A DNA stretch of 32,000 nucleotides from Candidatus Peregrinibacteria bacterium (GCA_014728955.1 WJKT01000042.1:6211-38210); one strand, 5' to 3'; positions 15,337-31,121 are shown, counted from the stretch's first letter. The notes: generated from the sequence alone by a model not told the origin. Made by a program: numbers and translations.

Positions 15337-16638
15337 TTATGTTCCCCACGTGTCTAGGGCTTCTTGTAATGCCTTATGTGATTGCGCATATTCTTTTAGA
15401 GGGGTATCGGACATAGCAGCATGTACCGCTTGCATAATAGCTTGTGCTCCCATTGCGGTGCCGCCCGGATGGCCATGACATCCTCCGCCCATTTGACAGA
15501 CGATATCTTTTCCCATTGCTTTAACAACATGAGGAATTTTCCCGGGATATAATCCGCCTGAAGCTACAGCAACAACCGGTTTCATCCCATACCATTCCTG
15601 GCCGAGGGTTTCCATTTCTTTGTTTGGTTCAACGCTATCTTTTTCGAGCGCTTCCACAATAACCATGGTTTCTTTTTCGCCTCCTTCCATTTTCCCTGCA
15701 CCGGCGGTTCCGGTATGAAGAAGGTCGACGCCAAGCATACGATACACTTTTGCCAGAACAAGCATTGAAATGGTAAATCCCGGCTGGCGTGTAATTGCTC
15801 CGTGCATAGCTCGGTGTGCGTGAATAATTTGTCCGGTGTTTTTTCGTCTATACGTTTCCACCGCCGAAAAACCGAGGGTGACAACATCAAGCATACAAAC
15901 CTCACCACCGTGCTTTTTCACTACATCGCTTCGTCGCATCATCTCATCAAAATGTGAATGAGTAATATTAGCAAGATATATTTTTTTGTGCCCCGTTTCT
16001 TGTTCGGCTTTATCTCTCATTTTAAATGTTAGTTTTATTCGCGTGTCAAAATCATTAAATGATTGTGATGTAAGATTCTCATCATCTTTTACAATATCAA
16101 GTCCTTCTCCTTCGTTCCCCGACCAGGCCTGATAGCCAACTTTAGCATGCTGCTCACTGGTAAGTCCTACTTTTGGTTTAATAATTGTTCCGGTAAAAGG
16201 ACGGTCGTGTACATCCGCAATAGCCCGAACTCCTTCGATTCCGTGAGCGGGACCCGGAAATTTTTCAATAATGTCCTTGGGGAATCTGATATCGCAAACT
16301 CTCAAACTTTCCAAAATTTTCATGCCGAGAATATTTCCGCAAATTGACGATAATATGCCCGACATATTGCTAACCTCAAAAAGACCTATTGGGTAGGCGA
16401 TAGTAGCTAATTCCCGCTCTTTGTCGATAGAAATAACGTGCGGTTTTAATTGATGTGCGATTTTCTCGTTCATTGTTGAAATTTTTGTCCATGTACCTAT
16501 TGATGATTCCGCGGCGAGTTGTTCAGCGGCTTCTTCGTACGATACGCCTTGTTTTGGCGTATATTTGTACAAGCAGACGACATCGCTTTCCGCCGGCTTA
16601 TAATCGGGATCATAGTAATTGATTTGTTCGTATTGCAT
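15337..16638 (-). CDS. rbcL: RuBisCO large subunit, form III-like (archaeal/CPR type; form III versus II/III not resolvable by eye)
   Basis: AAESSIGTWT, GTIIKPKVGL, the carbamylation-site VKDDENL, IHAHRAMHGA, GTAGAGKMEGG, ASGGLYPG and QMGGGCHGHPGG all align with the Thermococcus form III enzyme as I recall it. No small subunit or phosphoribulokinase (PRK) gene is nearby. Confidence 0.9.
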   Translation of the reverse strand: MQYEQINYYDPDYKPAESDVVCLYKYTPKQGVSYEEAAEQLAAESSIGTWTKISTMNEKIAHQLKPHVISIDKERELATIAYPIGLFEVSNMSGILSSICGNILGMKILESLRVCDIRFPKDIIEKFPGPAHGIEGVRAIADVHDRPFTGTIIKPKVGLTSEQHAKVGYQAWSGNEGEGLDIVKDDENLTSQSFNDFDTRIKLTFKMRDKAEQETGHKKIYLANITHSHFDEMMRRSDVVKKHGGEVCMLDVVTLGFSAVETYRRKNTGQIIHAHRAMHGAITRQPGFTISMLVLAKVYRMLGVDLLHTGTAGAGKMEGGEKETMVIVEALEKDSVEPNKEMETLGQEWYGMKPVVAVASGGLYPGKIPHVVKAMGKDIVCQMGGGCHGHPGGTAMGAQAIMQAVHAAMSDTPLKEYAQSHKALQEALDTWGT

Positions 16639-17936: not shown

Positions 17937-18314
17937 ATGAAGCATCGGTTCTCACATCAACGTGCGTTAATACGGAAGATATTAACCGATTACAAAGGAC
18001 ATTTAAGTGCTGAAGAAATTTATGAACGTGTTCTTAAACACGAGCCTTCCATGAGCTTGGGAACTGTATATCGTAATTTACATGTATTGGAGGGGATGGG
18101 AGAAATACGAAAATTAATGGTGAAGGAAAAAGCTTTATATGAAGGGGAAAGAAAGCCTCATCATCATATAATATGTACACGATGCGGAATGGTAAAAAAT
18201 GTATATAAACCGGCCCATTTAAAATGTGAAAAATGTCTTTCCTGGGTTCATGATTTTACGGTTGAGGAAGCATTTATCACAGCGTACGGCGTATGTAAAC
18301 AATGCAAAAAATAA
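17937..18314 (+). CDS. fur: Fur-family metalloregulator (Fur/Zur/PerR type not resolved)
   Basis: Winged-helix segment HLSAEEIYERV...SLGTVYRNLHVLEGMGEI, an HHHIICTRCG metal/Zn motif and C-terminal CKQC. Divergent from the ferredoxin gene. Confidence 0.85.
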   Translation: MKHRFSHQRALIRKILTDYKGHLSAEEIYERVLKHEPSMSLGTVYRNLHVLEGMGEIRKLMVKEKALYEGERKPHHHIICTRCGMVKNVYKPAHLKCEKCLSWVHDFTVEEAFITAYGVCKQCKK

Positions 18315-18748: not shown

Positions 18749-19135
18749 ATGCCCATGAAAACCATATATCTTGTTGGCAATGCACTGGTCCCGGAAGATG
18801 CACTGCCGTTGCACATAAAAGAACAATTAGTAAAGCAATTTCCGAATATAACCTTTAAAGAATTCGATCCAACGGAGAATCTTCCTGAGGATAGTCCGGA
18901 GCTTACAATGATAGACACGGTTCAGGGGATTGATCGTGTTTGTGTATTTCGGGAGATTGATTCATTTTCCAGCCAAAAAGCTTATTCGATGCATGATTTT
19001 GATCTTGGTTGGCAATTAAAGCTATATAAAAAAATGGGAAAGGTTGAAAAGGTAACGATTATTGGCATTCCCATGGGAATGGATGAAAACACGGCCTATG
19101 CCCAAGTAGCCAAGGAAATCGGTCGTTTAATGTAA
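18749..19135 (+). CDS. [NiFe]-hydrogenase maturation endopeptidase (HycI/HyaD-like)
   Basis: Aligns by eye with E. coli HycI: IYLVGNALVPEDAL versus LLCVGNSMMGDDGAG, MIDTVQG versus IVDATDMG, YSMHDFDLG versus TTHNMPLNY, VTIIGIP versus VIFLGIQP. The acidic, Asp and His metal-ligand positions are kept. The adjacent large subunit has a cleavable C-terminal extension. Confidence 0.6.
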   Translation: MPMKTIYLVGNALVPEDALPLHIKEQLVKQFPNITFKEFDPTENLPEDSPELTMIDTVQGIDRVCVFREIDSFSSQKAYSMHDFDLGWQLKLYKKMGKVEKVTIIGIPMGMDENTAYAQVAKEIGRLM

Positions 19136-19147
19136 AGATTTATAGGA

Positions 19148-20143
19148 TTAGAGGAGGCGTGTGATTTTATTTGATGCATCTCGCACTTCAAGGCGTATCT
19201 GTTCTTCGGTGCTGCCCGAGGGGTATTGAAGATGAAAAGCAGTTTCGTTCGGTTGTTTTTTGTAGCGGCGATTTAATGGTTCACGATGGGTGATAAGCGA
19301 ATCATCCGGATGAAGAACGTGTGATTGAAATACGCGGACTCTTGTAGCGATACAAACGTGATAGGGAAGATCCGAATGCAGATTGTCTTTGAGCGTGACG
19401 TCACCTTCTATTATATGGTCCGGATCGGTTGTTGGTGTATCTTTGGAAACTGTAAAAAACGTTCCCAGGTCAACGGGACGACGATGATCATTTTTTGTTT
19501 TGTGTAAAAGAACACTGAGAGATATTTCTTGTGGAATTATGATAGTTGAGTCTGACGCAAACTGTTTGGCGTTCTCGCTAATTGCAAGTTGTGGTTCATA
19601 AAGCAGTGCTCTGCCCATTGCTTCGCTTATTACAAGATCCGGTGTAGATGATGGAGTATAGGTTGCTGCATCATGATGCACAATGGTAGGGAAGTACTCA
19701 GTAAGGTCAAGTTGTTCAATAAGTTTTTGAACGCATTGTAAAGCGCCTTCTTGGATATCAACCAAAGTGAATTGGATTTCTTGTGATGAAAAATGATGTG
19801 TAAGGGGAAGTGCGAGCGTAGCAAAAGGACCACATCCCATATAGGCGATAGAAAGCGTTTTGTAGGGGTGTTTTTCTTGCAGCGTTTTAATGGCTGCATA
19901 AATACCCTGTATAAAAATAGTGGTTCGTTCGGTGTCAAGCATGCAATGGGCTGCTTCAACCGGGGCAATACATGATCCTTTGGGGGTGGTAATATGTTCT
20001 TGATGTTCCCATAAATCTTGTTCAATAGCATCTTCCAGCTCATGAAAAAGTTTGATAATTGAAACACGTGTTTTTTTGCTGCTGGGAGGTTCAATAATAT
20101 GCTGTGCCGTTTCTTCCAGTTGCTCGGTGAGATATTCTTTCAT
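19148..20143 (-). CDS. Class I SAM-dependent methyltransferase-like protein with PRMT-like motifs, 331 aa
   Basis: Motif I-like LSIAYMGCGPFATLAL, acidic post-I FTLVDIQE, and DLVISEAMGRALLYE, which resembles the PRMT double-E loop (xxIISEWMGYxLLxE). Same strand as the hydrogenase large subunit, starting 60 nt after it. Confidence 0.45.
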   Translation of the reverse strand: MKEYLTEQLEETAQHIIEPPSSKKTRVSIIKLFHELEDAIEQDLWEHQEHITTPKGSCIAPVEAAHCMLDTERTTIFIQGIYAAIKTLQEKHPYKTLSIAYMGCGPFATLALPLTHHFSSQEIQFTLVDIQEGALQCVQKLIEQLDLTEYFPTIVHHDAATYTPSSTPDLVISEAMGRALLYEPQLAISENAKQFASDSTIIIPQEISLSVLLHKTKNDHRRPVDLGTFFTVSKDTPTTDPDHIIEGDVTLKDNLHSDLPYHVCIATRVRVFQSHVLHPDDSLITHREPLNRRYKKQPNETAFHLQYPSGSTEEQIRLEVRDASNKITRLL

Positions 20144-20203: not shown

Positions 20204-21514
20204 CTATTTGGATTTTTTCCAATTAATGGTGAGGAAGTGTGTTGCACAACTCATGCAGGGGTCATATGCGCGGATAAGCTTTTCAATTTCCATGCGCACA
20301 TGATCTTTGTCCATATTTTCTCCATCTTTGTCCAGATAGGTTTGCACCAAATGCCGTATATCATTTTCTATATTAATTTGATTCTGAGCCGTAGGGACAA
20401 CTACTTCAGCATCGGTAATTTTCCCTTCTTTATCGAGCTGTATATAGTGATATAGCGTTCCTCGCGGCGCTTCTACAACGCCAACACCGTCTCCCGCTTT
20501 GATAGGAATGCTATCAGGCGGTTCAGGGGTAACGGTATGGGTCTCAATAAGCTCTATCGCATGGTCGATTGAATGCAGTATTTCAATAGCTTGAGCTAGA
20601 TTATTGTGATACACATCAATCGAAGGGAAACGATCAATATATTTTTTTGCATTTTTTTTTGTATTGTCGTGAAGTGCTTCACTATTCACATTAAGGCGGG
20701 CCAACGAGCCAACCATATATTCTTTTCCTTGTAAGGTGTAAGCCTTGGCTGTTGAATAAGGAATAACCACTTCTTTTAGCTGTGTTCGAAATTCCCGTTC
20801 CGGCACGCAAAAATTACCTTCACTGCAGAGAGCGGGTCCCTCCAAAAAGCTGAAATCTTTCGTTTTTAAACCGACAAATTTTGTTTTCCGTTCAAGGCTA
20901 AATGGGCAGTTGTCAAAAATATCCATTAAAAATAACACTTTTTCCCGTATGGATTTTAGTTCTTTTTTGCTGTTTTCCAATTGCTCTTTTGTTGGATATT
21001 TTACAAATCCGCCAACCATAGGGAAAGGAGCGTGAACGGCTCTGCCTCCGACGTACGTTGATAAGTTATTCCCGGCTCTTTTAATGTCAAACATGTCATG
21101 CAAAAGCTTATGTTCGGTTTTGTCGTTTTCATCAAAGGCCAATACTGAATCTTTTCCGATAACATCTGGTAATGCAAAAACATATAAATGTAATGCGTGA
21201 TCCCGTATCATCAGGCCATAGGTAAGCAGTTTACGTAACATGGTTGTTTGCTCTGAAGGTTCATAATTAAGAGCATCTTCAATAGCTTCAATAGCGGCCA
21301 ATAGGTGCGCTATACTACAGGTTCCGCATATGCGTGAAAGCAATTGAGGAACTTGTTTATAGGGTTTTCCTAAGATGGCTTTTTCAAAAAAACGTTTGTT
21401 TTCCATAATCTTAAATTCAACTCCTTCGATTTTATTGTCTTTGATATAGACATCCATATCTAAATGCCCTTCAATTTTTGAAAGCCCTTCTATGGAAATA
21501 TTTACCTGATGCAT
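20204..21514 (-). CDS. [NiFe]-hydrogenase large subunit (soluble, group 3-like)
   Basis: N-terminal IEGLSKIEGHLDMDV, L1 motif RICGTCSIAH and C-terminal DPCMSCATH, giving all four Ni-Fe cysteines. A 10-aa extension FLTINWKKSK follows; extensions like this are removed by a maturation protease. Confidence 0.9.
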   Translation of the reverse strand: MHQVNISIEGLSKIEGHLDMDVYIKDNKIEGVEFKIMENKRFFEKAILGKPYKQVPQLLSRICGTCSIAHLLAAIEAIEDALNYEPSEQTTMLRKLLTYGLMIRDHALHLYVFALPDVIGKDSVLAFDENDKTEHKLLHDMFDIKRAGNNLSTYVGGRAVHAPFPMVGGFVKYPTKEQLENSKKELKSIREKVLFLMDIFDNCPFSLERKTKFVGLKTKDFSFLEGPALCSEGNFCVPEREFRTQLKEVVIPYSTAKAYTLQGKEYMVGSLARLNVNSEALHDNTKKNAKKYIDRFPSIDVYHNNLAQAIEILHSIDHAIELIETHTVTPEPPDSIPIKAGDGVGVVEAPRGTLYHYIQLDKEGKITDAEVVVPTAQNQINIENDIRHLVQTYLDKDGENMDKDHVRMEIEKLIRAYDPCMSCATHFLTINWKKSK

Positions 21515-21520
21515 AAACGC

Positions 21521-22039
21521 TTATGAGTGATTAGTAATAGAGTCTGATTGATCGATAATCTTGAATTTTTTGAGGTATTTATCGACTACTTCTATAAATG
21601 TTTTTTCTATCATGGGGCATCCTGGAACTTTATCGTCAACATCAACAAGTTCATGTAGTGCATAGACCGTATCGGCCTGATCAAACTGCAGCAGATATGG
21701 TGAGATTTCTTTTTTCAGTTTGTCGTCAAAATTGTTTCGGTGCCCGGAAGGGAGCCCGGTAACAGCACATGAACCGATAGCAACAATATACTGAGAATTT
21801 TTTCTTATTTTAAGAAGCTTTTCTTTATCTTTATCCGAAGCGATAGCTCCTTCAACAAAGGCAACATCAATATCTGAAAGAGTATTGTTGCTTTGCAATA
21901 CATTGGCATGTCGGAATTCGAAGAGTTTTTTGAATGCAAAAAAATTATCGTTGAGCATTTCAACGAACATAATGGTTGAATCCTCGCAACAGGTAAAGGA
22001 AAACCAGCCTATTTTTAATTTTTTTTGCTTTGTCGTCAT
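21521..22039 (-). CDS. Minimal [NiFe]-hydrogenase small subunit (172 aa, proximal cluster only)
   Basis: From Met15 of the track ORF (ATG at 22039): WFSFTCCEDS, IGSCAVTGLPSG, VPGCP. That is exactly four Cys and no Tat signal. The stop is 6 nt before the large-subunit start. Confidence 0.8.
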   Translation of the reverse strand: MTTKQKKLKIGWFSFTCCEDSTIMFVEMLNDNFFAFKKLFEFRHANVLQSNNTLSDIDVAFVEGAIASDKDKEKLLKIRKNSQYIVAIGSCAVTGLPSGHRNNFDDKLKKEISPYLLQFDQADTVYALHELVDVDDKVPGCPMIEKTFIEVVDKYLKKFKIIDQSDSITNHS

Positions 22040-22086
22040 CAACGCTAAACATATCGTACTATTCCTTTGTACGCAAGACAAAGCTA

Positions 22087-23460
22087 TTAAAAATAAAGAT
22101 CCCGCTCACCTTCTTCTATACGGATGAGACGCTCTTTTGTTTTTTCACGAACATCTTCGGATGGGATGTGATTGGTATAGTGCGTAATGATTGCTTCACC
22201 TTTTTCTTTTACGGAAGGAGAGGCGTAATCCTCCAGATATTCTTTAAGTGTTAAAATAGCGTTGGGGCGGCAAAAATTATGGATTTCCCCCGGTTTGGCA
22301 ATGTCCATAAAATCTTGTCCGGTTCGACCGAGGCGATAACAGGCAGTACAGAAACTCGGAAGCAATCCTTCATCCAAAATGCCCTCAATTACCTCGTCAA
22401 CACTGCGTTCATCGGAAAGGGTGAATTGTTTGAGGTCTTTTTGTCTGCCATACCCTCCGGGTGAAGTGCATGATGCCGCACTGGTCTGAGAAATTCCTAT
22501 CTCAAATGCTTTTTTGCGGACAGAAGGCGTTTCGCGTGTTGAAATAATCATGCCGGTATACGGCGTGCTTAAACGCAAAATAGCGATAATTTTTAAAATT
22601 TCTTTTTCACTGACTGTATGTGGCCATTTATCTTTAACTGTCTCGGCAGGCTGTAAGCGCGGAACCGAAAAGGTATGAGGGCCAACACCGTATTTTTTAT
22701 CCAAATACTGCCCGTGTGAAATTAACGCGAGAGTATCATACCGCCAGTCATATAGGCCATACAAAACTCCTAAGCCAATATCGTCTATACCAGCTTCAAA
22801 CGCTCTGTCATGAGCAAAAAGCTGTCTTTCATAATCAGCTTTTGGTCCTTTGTGCAGTTTTTCGTAGGTTGGTCGGTGATACGTTTCTTGAAACAATTGA
22901 TAGGTGCCGATGCCAACGTCTTTCAATTTTTTATAATCCTCGACAGATGTAGCGGCAATATTAACATTTACTCTCCTAATATCTCCTTTTCCTTCTTTTA
23001 CCGAGTAAATTCTTTTAATGACATCAATAACATAATCGATAGGTGTTTCACCCGGGTGCTCGCCAAATTCCAATAAAAGCCGTTTATGACCCATATTAAT
23101 AAGAACCCGTGTTTGTTGTTCTACTTCATCCAGACTTAATTTTTTACGTTTCATTTTATTGCGAATGTGGAATCCACAATATTCGCAGTCGTTTACGCAA
23201 TAATTTGATACGTAAAGTGGTGCAAACAGAACCAGTCTTTCTCCATAAATTTCTTTTTTGATTTTCCACGCCGATTTGAACATATTTTCTGTGTATTTTG
23301 GATCGGCGTTTATCAAAACTGCAGATTCCTCTAAAGAAAGTCCTTTCATTTTTTCGGCTTTTGATAGGACTTGCATTATTTGATTTTCTGTTGGATTTTT
23401 CGTTTCTTCAAGGAGTTTCTCAATCTTTTCCGAGTCAAATATCTCACGTATTTTTGACAT
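22087..23460 (-). CDS. hydG: Radical SAM tyrosine lyase HydG ([FeFe]-hydrogenase-type CO/CN synthase)
   Basis: CX3CX2C at C88/C92/C95 (YVSNYCVNDCEYCGF), then FQETYH, SVPRL and SAAS. The C-terminal auxiliary-cluster motif PSFCTACYRLGRTGQDFM...C(RPNA) is CX2CX22C by my count; HydG has it and ThiH lacks it. Confidence 0.85.
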   Translation of the reverse strand: MSKIREIFDSEKIEKLLEETKNPTENQIMQVLSKAEKMKGLSLEESAVLINADPKYTENMFKSAWKIKKEIYGERLVLFAPLYVSNYCVNDCEYCGFHIRNKMKRKKLSLDEVEQQTRVLINMGHKRLLLEFGEHPGETPIDYVIDVIKRIYSVKEGKGDIRRVNVNIAATSVEDYKKLKDVGIGTYQLFQETYHRPTYEKLHKGPKADYERQLFAHDRAFEAGIDDIGLGVLYGLYDWRYDTLALISHGQYLDKKYGVGPHTFSVPRLQPAETVKDKWPHTVSEKEILKIIAILRLSTPYTGMIISTRETPSVRKKAFEIGISQTSAASCTSPGGYGRQKDLKQFTLSDERSVDEVIEGILDEGLLPSFCTACYRLGRTGQDFMDIAKPGEIHNFCRPNAILTLKEYLEDYASPSVKEKGEAIITHYTNHIPSEDVREKTKERLIRIEEGERDLYF

Positions 23461-24719
23461 TAATCTAGGGTTAGTTTTTCCTCAAGCATCTTATAACTCT
23501 CATCAGTATTGTAAAGACCGTATTTTTCCCACATTCTGGTATTGAGCGCCTCTTTTCGCTTATATATCTCGTAATGTTCTGCATATTTTTCCGGTGTTAG
23601 ATTGAACATAAGTGAGTTTGCACCTGCCTGAATTGCATTTTTCCTTCCGTTAACCGGATCAAGTGTCTCAAGTGCAGTAACTACAGGAATTTTTGTATCT
23701 TTCATTTCCAGTCTTAAAATCGAAATCATTTTTAAATTCATCTCTTCCGTTCCGGGATTGTCATTCTCAAAAGGGGTGTGTTTGCAGGGAACAAAAGGTC
23801 CCATAGAAATCATGTCGAACTTGTTTTCGCGCATTGTAATTATGTCGTCGGCCAGATCAGAAATAGTTTGTCCGGGTAGTCCAATAATCGACCCTGAGGC
23901 AATAAAATAATTGAGTTCCTTCATAAATTTTAAGTGCTCTATGCGAGTTTTTAAATCTTTCCCGTTTTTATGAATTTTCTTAAAAAGATCGGGATTTGAA
24001 CTTTCAAATCTAAACAAAACGCCATTTGCTCCGGCTTCTCGCAGTTCTTTATACGTCTCATAATCTCTTTGTCCGATGCTCATAAATATAAACACCCGGG
24101 TTTTTTCTTTGATTTTTTTGACCATTTCAACCAGCTTTTCTTTCGTGTAGTATGGATCATCTCCAGATTGAAGAACTATTAATTTATAACCTTTTCCTCG
24201 CACAGCTTCATCAACGGTTTCAACAATTTCATCGATTGGCATTCTGTATCTTTTAATTGTCGCGTTCTCTTTCCTGAGGCCGCAATAAGCGCAGTCATTA
24301 ATACAGTAATTTGAAAATTCAATAATTCCGTGGATGCAGAAAAAATCGTTAATGTTCGCTCGGCGCATCATATCGGCTTCGCTAAAAAGGGCTTCTGCCT
24401 CACGGCCTTCGCACTTTAACAAATATTCAATCTCTTCTTTTTCAAGAGGTCTTTCTTTAGAATTTTTAATAATTTTGACAAATTGGGGATCCAATGTATC
24501 CGGATCTGTTTTTTGAACGTGTTCAAGCAGCTCCAAAATCTCTTTTGCATCTTTTTTATCGACTTTTTGGACGGCAATATCCGACATATACAAAACCCAG
24601 TCACCAACTGTTACCTCGGAGACAGCTTTTATAGAGATGGTTTTTTGAACGTCTCCTTGTTTGATGACGGCCTTATTTCCATGTATTTTAACAACTTTTG
24701 CCGGGATGGTAAGGCACAT
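23460..24719 (-). CDS. hydE: Fusion protein: N-terminal HypC/HupF-like domain (aa 1-~70) joined to radical SAM HydE (aa ~95-419)
   Basis: MCLTIPAKVVKIHGNKAVIKQGDV...VGDWVLYMSDIAVQKVDKKDAKEILELL matches the HypC pattern MC(L/I)xxPxxxxxIxGNxAxV...VGxWVLxHxGxA, including the essential Cys2. The rest aligns closely with Thermotoga HydE as I recall it: IIEFSNYCINDCAYCGLR (C139/C143/C146), KRYRM..EIVE, IVLQSGDDPY, GSIIGLPGQTISDLADD, FDMISMGPFVP. The stop overlaps the hydG start (TAATG). Confidence 0.85.
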   Translation of the reverse strand: MCLTIPAKVVKIHGNKAVIKQGDVQKTISIKAVSEVTVGDWVLYMSDIAVQKVDKKDAKEILELLEHVQKTDPDTLDPQFVKIIKNSKERPLEKEEIEYLLKCEGREAEALFSEADMMRRANINDFFCIHGIIEFSNYCINDCAYCGLRKENATIKRYRMPIDEIVETVDEAVRGKGYKLIVLQSGDDPYYTKEKLVEMVKKIKEKTRVFIFMSIGQRDYETYKELREAGANGVLFRFESSNPDLFKKIHKNGKDLKTRIEHLKFMKELNYFIASGSIIGLPGQTISDLADDIITMRENKFDMISMGPFVPCKHTPFENDNPGTEEMNLKMISILRLEMKDTKIPVVTALETLDPVNGRKNAIQAGANSLMFNLTPEKYAEHYEIYKRKEALNTRMWEKYGLYNTDESYKMLEEKLTLD

Positions 24720-27851: not shown

Positions 27852-30800
27852 ATGTATAAGACAGCACAAATCTTCAAACGCACGGCGGCAACGTTGATGG
27901 TTATGTCGCTTGCGTTGACGCTTTTTGTTGCAAACATCGCTTCGGTAAAAGCTGATGTTGCGGCAATTGATAGCTTTGAAGTTGTTCAAAGCTCTTTTAA
28001 TCCGTCAGAACAATCGGCGGAAATTAATTTTTCCCTTAATACATCGGGAAAAGTCGGTTTGGAAATCCACGAAGGCAGCAATCCTATTAAAACGCTTGCA
28101 ATGCGTCAGGATGTAACTGCGGGAAGCCACACGTATTATTGGGATGGTACCAATGATAGTGGCACGCAGGTTGCCGAAGGAACGTATAAAGCACAACTAC
28201 TTTTCTATGGTAGTGATTTTGCTTTATTTGCCGATGATACTGTAACTGTAGATTTTGGTGGAGGTACAACCCCTCAACCAACCAATGTGATTACCAATGA
28301 TTACGCCTATCCTCAACAATTTGATCCTCGCTTGGAAACAACCAAGATTTATTTCACTCTTAACGATTCTGTTGAAGAGTTAGCGGTGGAAATTGAGAAA
28401 AACGGATCACATGTTGTTACTTTAATGAGTAATCAAAGTAAGTCATCAGGAACATATTATGTGATATGGAATGGTAGAAACAAGCATAATGTGACTGTTG
28501 GTGAAGGTGAATATCGTTATGTAATAAGTGCAACCGGAGATTTCGGCAGCGATGTTGAATATGGGTATATTGCCTCAAATTATGGTAGCGAGATTGGCAT
28601 AGAGCCTAATGTTACAAACGACTATGTTTCACCATCTACCTTTGATCCGCAAGATGAGGATACTCGAGTATTTTATACCCTAAATACCGGGGCGGATGTA
28701 ACCGTTGAAATTTACGACGGGTCAATGCTTGTTGATATTTTGTCCGATCATGAAGATGAAAATTCGGGAACGCATTCCGTAATATGGGATGGGCGAAATC
28801 TTAACGGCGATCTTATGTCGGAGGATACCTATACCTATAAAGTATATGCGGAAAATGCATGGGGAGATGATATGGAAGAAGGATCGGTTACTGTTGATTA
28901 CGAATCAAACAACAATACCGTTGTAACACCGGATGTTACCAATACCTATGCTTCTCCGGATGAATTTGATCCGACTGAAGAAGATACTACTATTACCTAT
29001 ACCTTAAATACATGCGCTTATATAACGGCAAAAGTATATAAGAAATCAAATAATGCATATGTAACAACATTGGAAGAAATTGATTATCAATGTGAAGGAA
29101 ATCATTCATTAACATGGGATGGACGCGATGATGATCATGATATTGTAGAGAATGGTCAATATACTATTGAAATAAGTGCTCAAAACAGTAAAGGATCTGA
29201 TGAAGAAGATGATGAAGTGACTGTTGATGACCCGGATGCAGATGATGATACTGGAGACGCTCCAAATGTATATGATATGGAGGTTGATCCGGAAGAATTT
29301 GACCCATATGACACAACAACAACGCTTTCATTCAGACTTGATGAATGTGCCGATACAACTGTTCGCGTATATGATGAAGACGATGATCTCGTTAACGAAT
29401 TACGTGATGAAGTGTATTGGTGTAGTGGAGAACACGATGTCGTATGGGACGGTGAAGATGAAGATAATGATGAAGTTGAGGAAGGAGACTATTACTTTAA
29501 AGTCATTGCTGAAAATGAAGATGGCGACGATACCGAGGAAATCTGGGTAGAAGTCGATTATGATGCAGATGATGATGCAGATGAAGATCCAAAAATTACA
29601 GATGTTGATGTTGATCCGGAAGAATTCGATCCATATGAAGAAGAAGCTGAGCTTAGCTTTGAATTAAACACCTGTGCTGAAGTTACCATCGAAGTACGTG
29701 ATGATGATAACGATCTTGTTTATGAAGTGATTGATGACAAATGGCTTTGTGAAGGAGATCACGATTATGACTGGGACGGAGAAGATGAAGATAACGATTA
29801 TGTAAGACAAGATGATTATGAGTTCTATATAAGAGCTGAAAATAGTTATGGAACCGATACCGAGCGTGCCGATGTGGAAGTTGATTATAATGGGCACACG
29901 GTAGATGAAGAAGAACGATGTGCGGGATACCTCGATGTGAGTGCCAACGATCCTTATTGTGAAGCAATTGAATATGTAAAAGGTTCCGGCATTTTCGACG
30001 GATATCCTGATGGTTATTTCCGTCCATACCAGGCAATTAATCGTGCAGAAACAACAAAAGTGATTGTACGAGCATTTAATTATCCTGAACTGCCTGCCGA
30101 TGGTACAAACCTTGGATTCTGGGATTTATCACCATGGGATTGGTACATGGGATACATTAGAACAGCAAAACAATATGGAATCATTCAAGGATACCCTGAT
30201 GGAAGCTTTAAACCGGCACAAACGGTTAATCGAGTTGAATTATTAAAGATTTTCCTTGAATCGGCTAAGGTTGCGTTACCATCATGTGCGGGACCGTCGT
30301 ATCCTGATACAATGGCAAACGTGTGGTATTCAGACTATGTATGCTATGCAAAAATGCATAACTTGATGGATACCGATTACTACGGGATGTTTAATCCGGC
30401 GAAACCGATGACTCGTGGTGATGTTGCTGAATTGTTCTATCGATATTCCGAACGAAATCTTGGAGATAACAATTATTACGACGATGACTACTATAATGAT
30501 TACGATTCGCCTCGTGTATCAAATGTACGTCTTTCCGACTATGTTGTAGAGGAAGGTGATGGATTCAGAGTGTATTACACGCTTGATGAAGGAGCGGAAG
30601 TAACAATTGAAATCCTCGATGACAATAAAGATGAAATCCGGACTTTGCTTGATGAATTATATCGTTCAAGTGGCGAACATAGTGTTTATTTTGACGGAGA
30701 AGATGACGATGAAGATGAATTATCCGAGGATGAATACTTTGTCCGTATCGAAGCTGAAAACCGAAATGGACGATATAAAGTTGATATCAAATTTGAAGTT

Positions 30801-31121
30801 GATGAAGATGCCGGTGGTGTACGTATTACATCACTTGAATTGTCGGACGATGAATTTGATCCTGATTACGAAGATGTTGAAATCTCATTCCGCATTACTG
30901 AAGATGCTGAAGTTACCGTACGAGTTTACGATGACGATGATGACTTTGTAGCGGAATTATGGGATGACCGTGATCGTGACGAAGGCAACCATGACCTTGA
31001 ATGGGATGGTAGAGATGATGATGACGATCAAGTTTCGGATGGTAATTATACGATCAAAGTTATTGCTGATGATGGTGATGATACCGATACCGACGAGATT
31101 GAAGTAGAAGTTAATAGCTAA
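27852..31121 (+). CDS. Large acidic cell-surface (S-layer-associated) protein: signal peptide, 6 FlgD-Ig-like repeats, 3 SLH domains, 2 more repeats
   Basis: Signal-like N-terminus (AATLMVMSLALTLFVANIASVKA). Eight units of about 105-110 aa have the pattern (F)DP....(I/L)(S/Y)(F/Y).L......(V/I).(V/I)......V..L........G.H...WDG.D..........G.Y. (FlgD Ig-like/FlgD-C type). The SLH motifs are listed in the separate feature. Confidence 0.85.
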   Translation: MYKTAQIFKRTAATLMVMSLALTLFVANIASVKADVAAIDSFEVVQSSFNPSEQSAEINFSLNTSGKVGLEIHEGSNPIKTLAMRQDVTAGSHTYYWDGTNDSGTQVAEGTYKAQLLFYGSDFALFADDTVTVDFGGGTTPQPTNVITNDYAYPQQFDPRLETTKIYFTLNDSVEELAVEIEKNGSHVVTLMSNQSKSSGTYYVIWNGRNKHNVTVGEGEYRYVISATGDFGSDVEYGYIASNYGSEIGIEPNVTNDYVSPSTFDPQDEDTRVFYTLNTGADVTVEIYDGSMLVDILSDHEDENSGTHSVIWDGRNLNGDLMSEDTYTYKVYAENAWGDDMEEGSVTVDYESNNNTVVTPDVTNTYASPDEFDPTEEDTTITYTLNTCAYITAKVYKKSNNAYVTTLEEIDYQCEGNHSLTWDGRDDDHDIVENGQYTIEISAQNSKGSDEEDDEVTVDDPDADDDTGDAPNVYDMEVDPEEFDPYDTTTTLSFRLDECADTTVRVYDEDDDLVNELRDEVYWCSGEHDVVWDGEDEDNDEVEEGDYYFKVIAENEDGDDTEEIWVEVDYDADDDADEDPKITDVDVDPEEFDPYEEEAELSFELNTCAEVTIEVRDDDNDLVYEVIDDKWLCEGDHDYDWDGEDEDNDYVRQDDYEFYIRAENSYGTDTERADVEVDYNGHTVDEEERCAGYLDVSANDPYCEAIEYVKGSGIFDGYPDGYFRPYQAINRAETTKVIVRAFNYPELPADGTNLGFWDLSPWDWYMGYIRTAKQYGIIQGYPDGSFKPAQTVNRVELLKIFLESAKVALPSCAGPSYPDTMANVWYSDYVCYAKMHNLMDTDYYGMFNPAKPMTRGDVAELFYRYSERNLGDNNYYDDDYYNDYDSPRVSNVRLSDYVVEEGDGFRVYYTLDEGAEVTIEILDDNKDEIRTLLDELYRSSGEHSVYFDGEDDDEDELSEDEYFVRIEAENRNGRYKVDIKFEVDEDAGGVRITSLELSDDEFDPDYEDVEISFRITEDAEVTVRVYDDDDDFVAELWDDRDRDEGNHDLEWDGRDDDDDQVSDGNYTIKVIADDGDDTDTDEIEVEVNS
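29259..29900 (+). repeat. Intragenic tandem duplication: two adjacent repeat units with a 327-nt (109-codon) period
   Basis: GTTGATCCGGAAGAATT occurs at 29283 and 29610. TGGGACGG(t/a)GAAGATGAAGATAA(t/c)GAT occurs at 29445 and 29772. Both pairs are offset by exactly 327 nt. Confidence 0.8.
29919..30465 (+). other. Three tandem SLH (S-layer homology) domains in the middle of the 1089-aa protein
   Basis: YLDVSANDPYCEAIEYVKGSGIFDGYPDGYFRPYQAINRAETTKVIVRAF; FWDLSPWDWYMGYIRTAKQYGIIQGYPDGSFKPAQTVNRVELLKIFLESA; YPDTMANVWYSDYVCYAKMHNLMD..GMFNPAKPMTRGDVAELFYRY. Confidence 0.8.

Follow-up and report, generated by a model that had tools for sequence, protein, structure and literature searches.

Introduction

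In green algae the radical S-adenosylmethionine (SAM) enzyme HydE is fused to HydF, the acceptor of its product, and this HydEF protein was reportedly described by Posewitz and colleagues in 2004. Here we describe a fusion of HydE to a HypC/HupF-like domain, encoded in a 32,000-nucleotide stretch of DNA from a Candidatus Peregrinibacteria bacterium (GCA_014728955.1, WJKT01000042.1:6211-38210), which we refer to as the window. To our knowledge, no enzyme other than HydG has been found to produce CO as well as CN on iron. HydF is the acceptor of the HydE product (PMC10114646). A 2025 review of [NiFe]-cofactor biosynthesis holds that making any [NiFe] cofactor takes six Hyp proteins, names the anaerobic origin of the CO ligand as the most pressing open question, and mentions neither HydG nor radical SAM chemistry (PMC12134894). 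Neither the fusion nor a link between HydE/HydG and [NiFe] hydrogenases was described in the literature that we searched, which took in few papers from subscription journals, and an earlier description may exist.

The fusion resembles HydE (TIGR03956; Thermotoga maritima HydE, TmHydE, structures 3CIX and 7O1O) in its equivalog score, its fold, its CX3CX2C motif, the adjacent HydG gene and the conservation of residues corresponding to TmHydE Q107, R159, E161, M224, M291, K309 and T269. It differs from HydE in having an N-terminal HypC domain and Cys128, in carrying His, Phe, Gly and Phe in place of R54, T134, R155 and H160, and in lacking the C-terminal auxiliary-cluster cysteines. Moreover, within 10 kb on either side it never adjoins HydF or HydA, and it typically adjoins [NiFe]-hydrogenase genes. 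The N-terminal domain resembles HypC, HybG and HupF (PF01455, TIGR00074; 2Z1C, 2OT2) in its full-length Pfam match, its Met-Cys-x-x-x-Pro start, its five strands and helix, and the [NiFe] large subunit encoded nearby. In contrast to those proteins, it is not a free polypeptide of 70-100 amino acids (aa), it lacks an equivalent of His51, and no HypD was found nearby.

Two further systems offer parallels. In the HypC-HypD scaffold, which builds Fe(CN)2CO with HypE and HypF, the iron unit is held much as we suppose for the fusion, where Fe-CO/CN would sit between the Cys2 thiolate and a partner Cys (possibly His). However, the partner in the fusion would be a radical SAM barrel (Cys128/His130) rather than the [4Fe-4S] protein HypD, and the ligands would come from tyrosine by way of HydG rather than from carbamoyl phosphate. 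Like green-algal HydEF, the fusion would covalently join HydE to the receiver of its product, but here the acceptor would have a HypC fold with a single Cys instead of being a GTPase with a [4Fe-4S] cluster. A HypC-fold acceptor in place of HydF would imply a different destination enzyme. The hydrogenase encoded beside the fusion resembles group 3b [NiFe] hydrogenases in its large-subunit motifs, in its best NCBIfam models (ShyA/HydA and ShyD/HydD) and in the beta and gamma subunits found in many related loci. It differs in that its scores are far under the equivalog cut-offs (261 vs 700), the four-subunit composition is not found in the window, and the maturases of its operon are of the HydE/HydG type.

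A HypC-like domain and HydE are encoded by one gene

The fusion gene occupies 23460..24719 on the minus strand and encodes 419 aa from an ATG start with 0 internal stops. A sequence-only reading of this stretch had proposed a single polypeptide of HypC and HydE in an uninterrupted frame beginning with Met-Cys. All of this was borne out: the quoted peptides are present exactly, the N-terminus is MCLTIP (that is, Met-Cys-x-x-x-Pro), and in the profile check that it had suggested (PF01455 and a HydE model) both domains scored above curated cut-offs. Pfam HupF_HypC (PF01455) matches residues 1-65 over 65/65 model positions with 69.0 bits against a cut-off of 28.5, and NCBIfam TIGR00074 (HypC/HupF) gives 60.8 against 48. 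Pfam Radical_SAM (PF04055) matches residues 133-291 with 80.8 bits. The HydE equivalog model TIGR03956 matches residues 87-392 with 267.0 against 254.6, and thus the fusion lies only just above that cut-off. In comparisons with PDB sequences, E was 1e-70 for the HydE part with T. maritima HydE and 7e-11 to 4e-12 for the N-terminal part with Thermococcus kodakarensis HypC (4e-12 with 2z1c). PylB, BioB, HmdB and ThiH were considered as identities of the radical SAM part, and all scored far under their own cut-offs and below HydE.

An AlphaFold model of the fusion, built from an alignment of 117 family members, has a mean predicted local distance difference test (pLDDT) score of 89 and a predicted template modelling score (pTM) of 0.87. 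The HypC/HupF-like domain (residues 1-65; 24525..24719, minus), delimited by PF01455, TIGR00074 and the PDB HypC match, forms five strands and a C-terminal helix in the model; the Cys2 codon lies within it at 24714-24716 (minus). The HydE radical-SAM domain (residues 78-419 and the stop codon; 23460..24488, minus), delimited by TIGR03956, the TmHydE match and the fold, superposes on TmHydE with a template modelling score of 0.85-0.90 (Foldseek). It contains the CX3CX2C motif (C139, C143 and C146; 24282-24305, minus) and, just before barrel strand beta-1, a family-specific Cys128-Ile-His130 motif (24330..24338, minus). Between the two domains lies a short linker (residues 66-77; 24489..24524, minus), recognised from model confidence and family variability: it has no regular secondary structure in the model, its sequence varies across the fusion family, and the least confident block of the model is residues 61-70 (mean pLDDT 68). 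The first HydE helix starts at residue 78 and HydE homology at about residues 78-87. The domain identities in the sequence-only reading therefore stand, whereas its HydE boundary at about residue 95 was placed too late and its linker of about 25 aa shrinks to about 12.

Distribution of the fusion

At least 120 protein clusters of fusion homologues were listed from NCBI, JGI, ENA and Logan, with 54-100% identity, and the PF01455+PF04055 architecture was present in 120/120 of those listed. NCBI also contains a protein identical to the fusion. A full-length fusion was found in 80/80 loci retrieved from 448 matching metagenome stretches, and the fusion is retained at 42-100% identity in hundreds of sequences. 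The fusion is widely conserved in bacteria of the candidate phyla radiation (CPR, Patescibacteria). Because the same fusion recurs across independent assemblies, misassembly or a frameshift, which had been raised as a way in which the observation could fail, is excluded. A further such concern, that the architecture might be common and already characterised, proved half right: it is common, with hundreds of CPR sequences, but databases name it just 'HydE' or 'biotin synthase', and no paper on it turned up in the literature searched.

A neighbour-joining tree groups the fusions as one clade relative to canonical HydEs. Linkage to [NiFe] genes occurs in nearly all of the fusion sub-clades, suggesting that the [NiFe] association is ancestral. 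An exhaustive HypC-domain search also identified a triple fusion, HypC-HydE-HydG, of 881 aa (L020:10001-12646; P0125), in which three NCBIfam models score above their cut-offs. It is followed by genes for the [NiFe] small subunit, the large subunit and HypA, and group 3b beta/gamma-like genes lie upstream.

The HydE product pocket is remodelled

Residue counts were taken from alignments of 117 and 86 fusion sequences. Cys2 never varies (117/117 and 86/86). At the residue that corresponds to His51 of E. coli HypC, where this His is needed, the fusions have I, M, V, A or T (Met45 in this protein) and never His; solved HypCs carry a conserved His there, in a GDW/YVLVH motif. The assignment of a HypC-type domain thus holds for fold, score and Cys2, but the domain is not a standard HypC.

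In the HydE part, the radical SAM cysteines C139, C143 and C146 are present in 117/117 sequences. Q184 (TmHydE Q107), R237 (R159) and E239 (E161) are each conserved in 86/86, as is M371 (M291), with M303 (M224) in 85/86. K389 (K309) is K in 78/86 and R in 7/86, and T348 (T269) is retained. Other positions have changed: R54 of TmHydE is replaced by His130 (86/86), T134 by Phe/Tyr212 (84/86), R155 by Gly233 (85/86) and H160 by Phe238 (85/86). The three canonical HydEs that we compared, from three phyla, have R54, T134, R155, H160 and T269 in common. Cys128, at TmHydE position 52, is found in 86/86 fusions, where the three canonical enzymes have H, F and Y, with R in all three at position 54.

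The Fe(I) product species of TmHydE is contacted at its CN ligands by the polar residues R54, T134, R155 and T269 (PMC11826987). Three of these four CN-contact residues are replaced in the fusions. Near M224 and not far from the surface is the product (S3) site of HydE, proposed as the way out to HydF (PMC10114646). The fusions therefore conserve the catalytic half of the barrel, whereas its product/exit half has been reshaped into what resembles a Cys/His metal site. The fusion is a HypC-tagged, pocket-remodelled HydE clade and a plain member of neither family, because it departs from HydE in the product pocket and, within 10 kb on either side, in having no HydF and only one degenerate HydA-like gene, lacks the His of HypC, and is not a free HypC protein.

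The fusion heads a [NiFe]-hydrogenase gene cluster

A minus-strand cluster begins with the fusion, which is followed by the HydG gene and then, across short gaps, by genes for the small and large subunits of a [NiFe] hydrogenase. This operon context is decisive for interpretation and was absent from the sequence-only reading. HydG (457 aa; 22087..23460, minus) scores 566 bits with TIGR03955 against a cut-off of 312, and its ATG overlaps the TAA stop codon of the fusion by one base (TAATG). Its motifs are CX3CX2C at residue 88 and CX2CX22C at residue 371.

The [NiFe]-hydrogenase small (delta-type) subunit is a short form of 186 aa (21521..22081, minus; Pfam Oxidored_q6, 66.5 bits) whose top NCBIfam models, under their cut-offs, are sulfhydrogenase delta subunits (ShyD/HydD). 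Homologues align to it from residue 15 on, and translation probably begins at the ATG near 22039. Small subunits of 250-260 aa are encoded in many related loci. The large subunit, which is group 3b-like (436 aa; 20204..21514, minus; PF00374, 123.7 bits), carries the motifs RICGTCSIAH and DPCMSCATH-FLTINWKKSK and has a 10-residue C-terminal tail past the last His. Its nearest NCBIfam models are those of sulfhydrogenase alpha subunits (ShyA/HydA), with scores far under the cut-offs. In NCBI this large subunit is labelled 'hypothetical protein GF369_01705', though its motifs are intact.

Beta and gamma subunits were not found in the window; many related loci have both. Because the small subunit is short and beta and gamma are absent from the window, the Peregrinibacteria enzyme is predicted to be a minimal hydrogenase made of two subunits, for which no electron partner is obvious. 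HypD, HypE, HypF, HypA, HypB, HydF and HydA were likewise not found in the window.

A divergent candidate for a HycI/HybD-type maturation endopeptidase (128 aa; 18749..19135, plus) was identified from weak matches to HycI and maturation-protease models (E = 0.004-0.035; homologues, 2e-4, 1e-3 and 9e-4). Related genes lie near the large subunit in loci L001, L006 and L021, and D17, D56 and H82 are invariant. A profile search against PDB sequences returned nothing meaningful for this protein. It is assigned as a candidate because four homologues give sub-threshold HycI matches, the D/D/H residues are conserved and the gene accompanies the tail of the large subunit.

Gene neighbourhoods across fusion loci

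Open reading frames (ORFs) were clustered in 103 sequences (102 fetched loci and the window), which gave 87 non-redundant fusion loci with about 798 kb of flanking sequence; each neighbourhood was viewed over 10 kb on either side. The order fusion-HydG-small-large repeats at 87, 68, 59, 58 and 57% identity. The top neighbour families of the fusion are HydG, the [NiFe] large subunit (34 loci) and the small subunit (32 loci), followed by the gamma (FAD/NAD/DHODB Fe-S) and beta (Fer4_22) subunits, HypA and the protease. HydG adjoins the fusion in 40 of the 58 non-redundant loci with at least 1.5 kb downstream, and a large subunit lies within 10 kb of it in 19 of the 39 loci with at least 5 kb downstream, where by our estimate chance would give roughly 2% if the locus is single-copy and the genome measures about 1 Mb. 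A frequent order is beta-gamma-[HypC-HydE]-(HydG)-delta-alpha-HypA, with the maturase genes inside the structural operon. Seven contigs apparently carry both the fusion and a close homologue of the large subunit.

Both Cys-pair motifs (RxCGxCxxxH and DPCxxCxxH) are kept in 28/28 full-length linked large subunits. Large subunits with a C-terminal tail of 7-14 residues co-occur with a protease-like gene; where the subunit stops at the His, a protease gene is not found in the neighbourhood and HypA is often present. This co-variation follows the normal logic of nickel insertion and then proteolysis.

Stand-alone HypC genes of 76-78 aa lie directly upstream of the fusion in three loci (L087:608-844, L092:1845-2075 and L097:1604-1834). 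These proteins keep the canonical His (GDWLLAHGDLA) and have His-rich tails, such as SGHNHAHSH, that might bind nickel. Stand-alone canonical HypCs also occur nearby in L040/41, L042, L060 and L063. Gracilibacteria with the same hydrogenase family (55% identity) encode a 72-aa HypC-like protein and a protein of 168-185 aa with a C-terminal HypC domain (L021:12095-12803 and a 927-kb JGI contig). Genes of carbamoyl-phosphate and pyrimidine metabolism (CPSase small chain, OTCase and DHOase) are adjacent in these Gracilibacteria loci.

Two other observations concern the hydrogenase genes. Genes for 23S_rRNA_IVP (PF05635) four-helix bundles lie between or beside the subunit genes (L006:13460-13876 and 16234-16611; L020:16727-17110). 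Large-subunit homologues with 54-56% identity are found in DPANN archaea (Woesearchaeota, Micrarchaeota and Aenigmarchaeota; P0334, P0343, P0346, P0370, P0374; L022), which suggests that the large subunit may have been transferred between CPR and DPANN small-genome organisms. The Micrarchaeota locus has no maturation genes nearby.

HypD, HypE, HypF and HydF are absent from the neighbourhoods

HypF, HypD and HypE queries were taken from a classical hypF-C-D-E operon (L018), which served as the positive control, and HydF and HydA queries from the canonical hydE-hydG-hydF operons of Cetobacterium and Bacteroides (controls L103 and L104). By blastp, tblastn and motif scans, HypD, HypE and HypF were detected only in control L018 and nowhere in the flanks of the 87 loci. 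By tblastn, HydF was detected in controls L103 and L104 and in no CPR locus. A HydA-like sequence, with 25% identity, was found by tblastn in 1/87 loci only (L003). At that locus, 9 kb away from a fusion that stands alone, an Fe_hyd_lg_C protein is encoded (L003:12109-12828, minus); with its degenerate H-cluster motifs (ASPCP, SPCYAK, CSGGCIGGPA), it may not be a catalytic [FeFe] hydrogenase. A shared contig with both HypD and the fusion was not seen, although this is a weak test given that HypD is about 50% identical across many phyla.

A possible route to the [NiFe] active site

The position of the fusion beside HydG and [NiFe] genes suggests an undescribed route to the [NiFe] active site. 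In the reading that we prefer, and to which we give an even chance, the fusion would be a CPR-specific variant of HydE whose built-in HypC-like domain replaces HydF as product acceptor and which, with HydG, matures the co-encoded group 3b-type [NiFe] hydrogenase; the joining of HydE to HydF in green algae is the analogy. The [NiFe] large subunit is proposed as the destination because it is the natural client of HypC-type chaperones. HydG, whose motifs are intact, would cleave tyrosine and, at its auxiliary cluster, assemble an Fe(Cys)(CO)x(CN)y synthon, as canonical HydG does. The HydE domain, with its catalytic and Fe(I)-binding residues conserved, would then attack the cysteine sulfur by its usual radical mechanism and break the C-S bond. 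In the canonical enzyme, two Fe(I) units are held by arginine contacts to the CN ligands and then passed to HydF. By contrast, the remodelled lower pocket of the fusion (His130, Gly233, Phe212 and Cys128) would hand a mononuclear Fe-carbonyl/cyanide unit to the Cys2 thiolate of the HypC-like domain. Delivery of the iron unit to the apo large subunit would fall to that domain, or to an adjacent stand-alone canonical HypC at loci that encode one, in keeping with the role of HypC; HypA would insert nickel, and the endopeptidase would cleave the tail where the large subunit has one, the genes for both being present in the clusters. Tyrosine-derived CO and CN would thereby replace the HypD/HypE/HypF route wholly or in part. 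We infer all of the chemical steps, the Cys2 hand-off and independence from HypD, HypE and HypF.

The observation made in the sequence-only reading is thus confirmed, parts of two hydrogenase maturation systems, a HypC/HupF-fold domain and HydE, being physically joined in one chain, and its interpretation is partly supported. Its suggestion that a tethered Cys2 could hold the substrate or product of HydE fits both the remodelled product pocket and the HypC-HydE-HydG triple fusion.

Several points weigh against the proposed route. All of its support comes from genomic context and residue conservation. The known product of HydG has 2 CO and 1 CN, whereas the [NiFe] site has 1 CO and 2 CN, and the large subunit looks canonical. 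The M224 and M291 equivalents, residues proposed to act in Fe(I) dimerisation, are retained, which fits [FeFe]-type chemistry, and the fusion of L003 has an Fe-hydrogenase-like gene 9 kb away. In about half of the long-flanked loci no [NiFe] genes are seen near the fusion, and in one fusion sub-clade HydG as well as the [NiFe] genes is missing from the neighbourhood. At least one CPR lineage, candidate division CPR2, does encode canonical HypD. The Gracilibacteria hydrogenase loci have HypC paralogues but neither HydE/HydG nor HypD, HypE or HypF nearby.

How far the route might dispense with the Hyp proteins is a separate matter. We hold only tentatively, and would sooner doubt than accept, that there are no HypD, HypE or HypF at all, such that tyrosine would provide CO and CN by way of HydG, HydE would release the iron unit, and the tethered HypC-like domain (Cys2, Cys128/His130) would deliver it. 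The resulting site might carry a non-standard ligand set, for example Fe(CO)2(CN). A different possibility, which we consider rather unlikely, is that the fusion is an add-on to a classical Hyp system, with HypD, HypE and HypF encoded elsewhere in the genome and HydG and HypC-HydE supplying part of the cofactor. The part supplied would most plausibly be the CO ligand or a pre-carbonylated iron, passed by the HypC-like domain to a HypC/HypD scaffold on which cyanation is completed. This arrangement would resolve the ligand mismatch and would speak to the anaerobic origin of CO, the main open question of the 2025 review (PMC12134894). The His-keeping HypCs upstream of or near the fusion in the loci named above and the HypD of CPR2 are consistent with it. 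However, HypA, the protease and HypC all cluster at the fusion loci, and HypD, HypE and HypF do not occur in the 798 kb of flanks; nor, weak as that test is, was a contig seen to carry the fusion with HypD.

The equivalog scores of HydE and HydG with models of [FeFe] maturases, the conserved Fe(I)-binding Met residues and K309, and the Fe_hyd_lg_C gene in L003 could also be accounted for by ordinary [FeFe] maturation, and [FeFe] hydrogenases have been reported from some Peregrinibacteria. HydA would then be encoded elsewhere, the HypC-like domain would replace or assist HydF, and adjacency to [NiFe] genes would reflect co-regulation of hydrogen metabolism. We judge this decidedly unlikely. HydF is found within 10 kb of the fusion at no locus, yet it is in the operon of both canonical references; the single HydA-like sequence among 87 loci has degenerate H-cluster motifs; and the fusion is embedded between [NiFe] structural genes. 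Moreover, HypC is a [NiFe]-specific chaperone fold, and the CN-contact residues that stabilise the diiron product have been replaced.

Gene fusions between operon neighbours are common in reduced genomes, and the linker here is short and variable. The organism's HypC could therefore merely have been joined to a neighbouring gene by intergenic loss and act independently of the barrel, or, in a variant of this explanation, the pair could make some other metallocofactor. Such a fusion without chemical coupling seems highly improbable to us. It would have to accommodate a monophyletic protein kept at 42-100% identity in hundreds of sequences, the lost HypC His and the invariant, family-specific product-pocket changes of HydE that both coincide with the fusion, and the extension to a triple fusion with HydG. 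The pTM of 0.87 also suggests that the predicted domains have a defined arrangement.

Other genes in the window

A gene for a Fur-family regulator (17937-18314, plus) lies beside the protease candidate and the hydrogenase cluster and could place the cluster under metal-responsive control. Downstream of the large subunit is a 331-aa ORF (19148-20143, minus) with only faint methyltransferase similarity. It was rejected as a component of the hydrogenase system: related loci contain no homologue, and it has a strong promoter-like site of its own, a near-consensus TTGACA-16-TACAAT at 20200-20173. Overall, the promoter and terminator scan was not above chance. A type III RuBisCO gene (15337-16638, minus; TIGR03326, 536 bits) lies about 3.5 kb from the hydrogenase cluster; type III RuBisCO is typical of the CPR nucleoside-salvage pathway. 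The window also encodes a surface protein of 1089 aa (27852-31121, plus) with eight FlgD_ig repeats and three SLH domains, and a syntenic gene is present in the genome with 68% identity (L001).

Significance

An operon in which HydG and a HypC-tagged HydE stand among [NiFe] structural genes, with no HypD, HypE, HypF or HydF nearby, is a testable candidate for an alternative route to the [NiFe] cofactor, and the system is small, at four to six genes. The fusion is also a naturally occurring HydE whose product pocket has been reshaped, and as such is useful for asking how HydE releases its product. If maturation does proceed with no HypD, HypE or HypF, two supposedly independent maturation systems would be interchangeable at the level of the Fe-CO/CN synthon.

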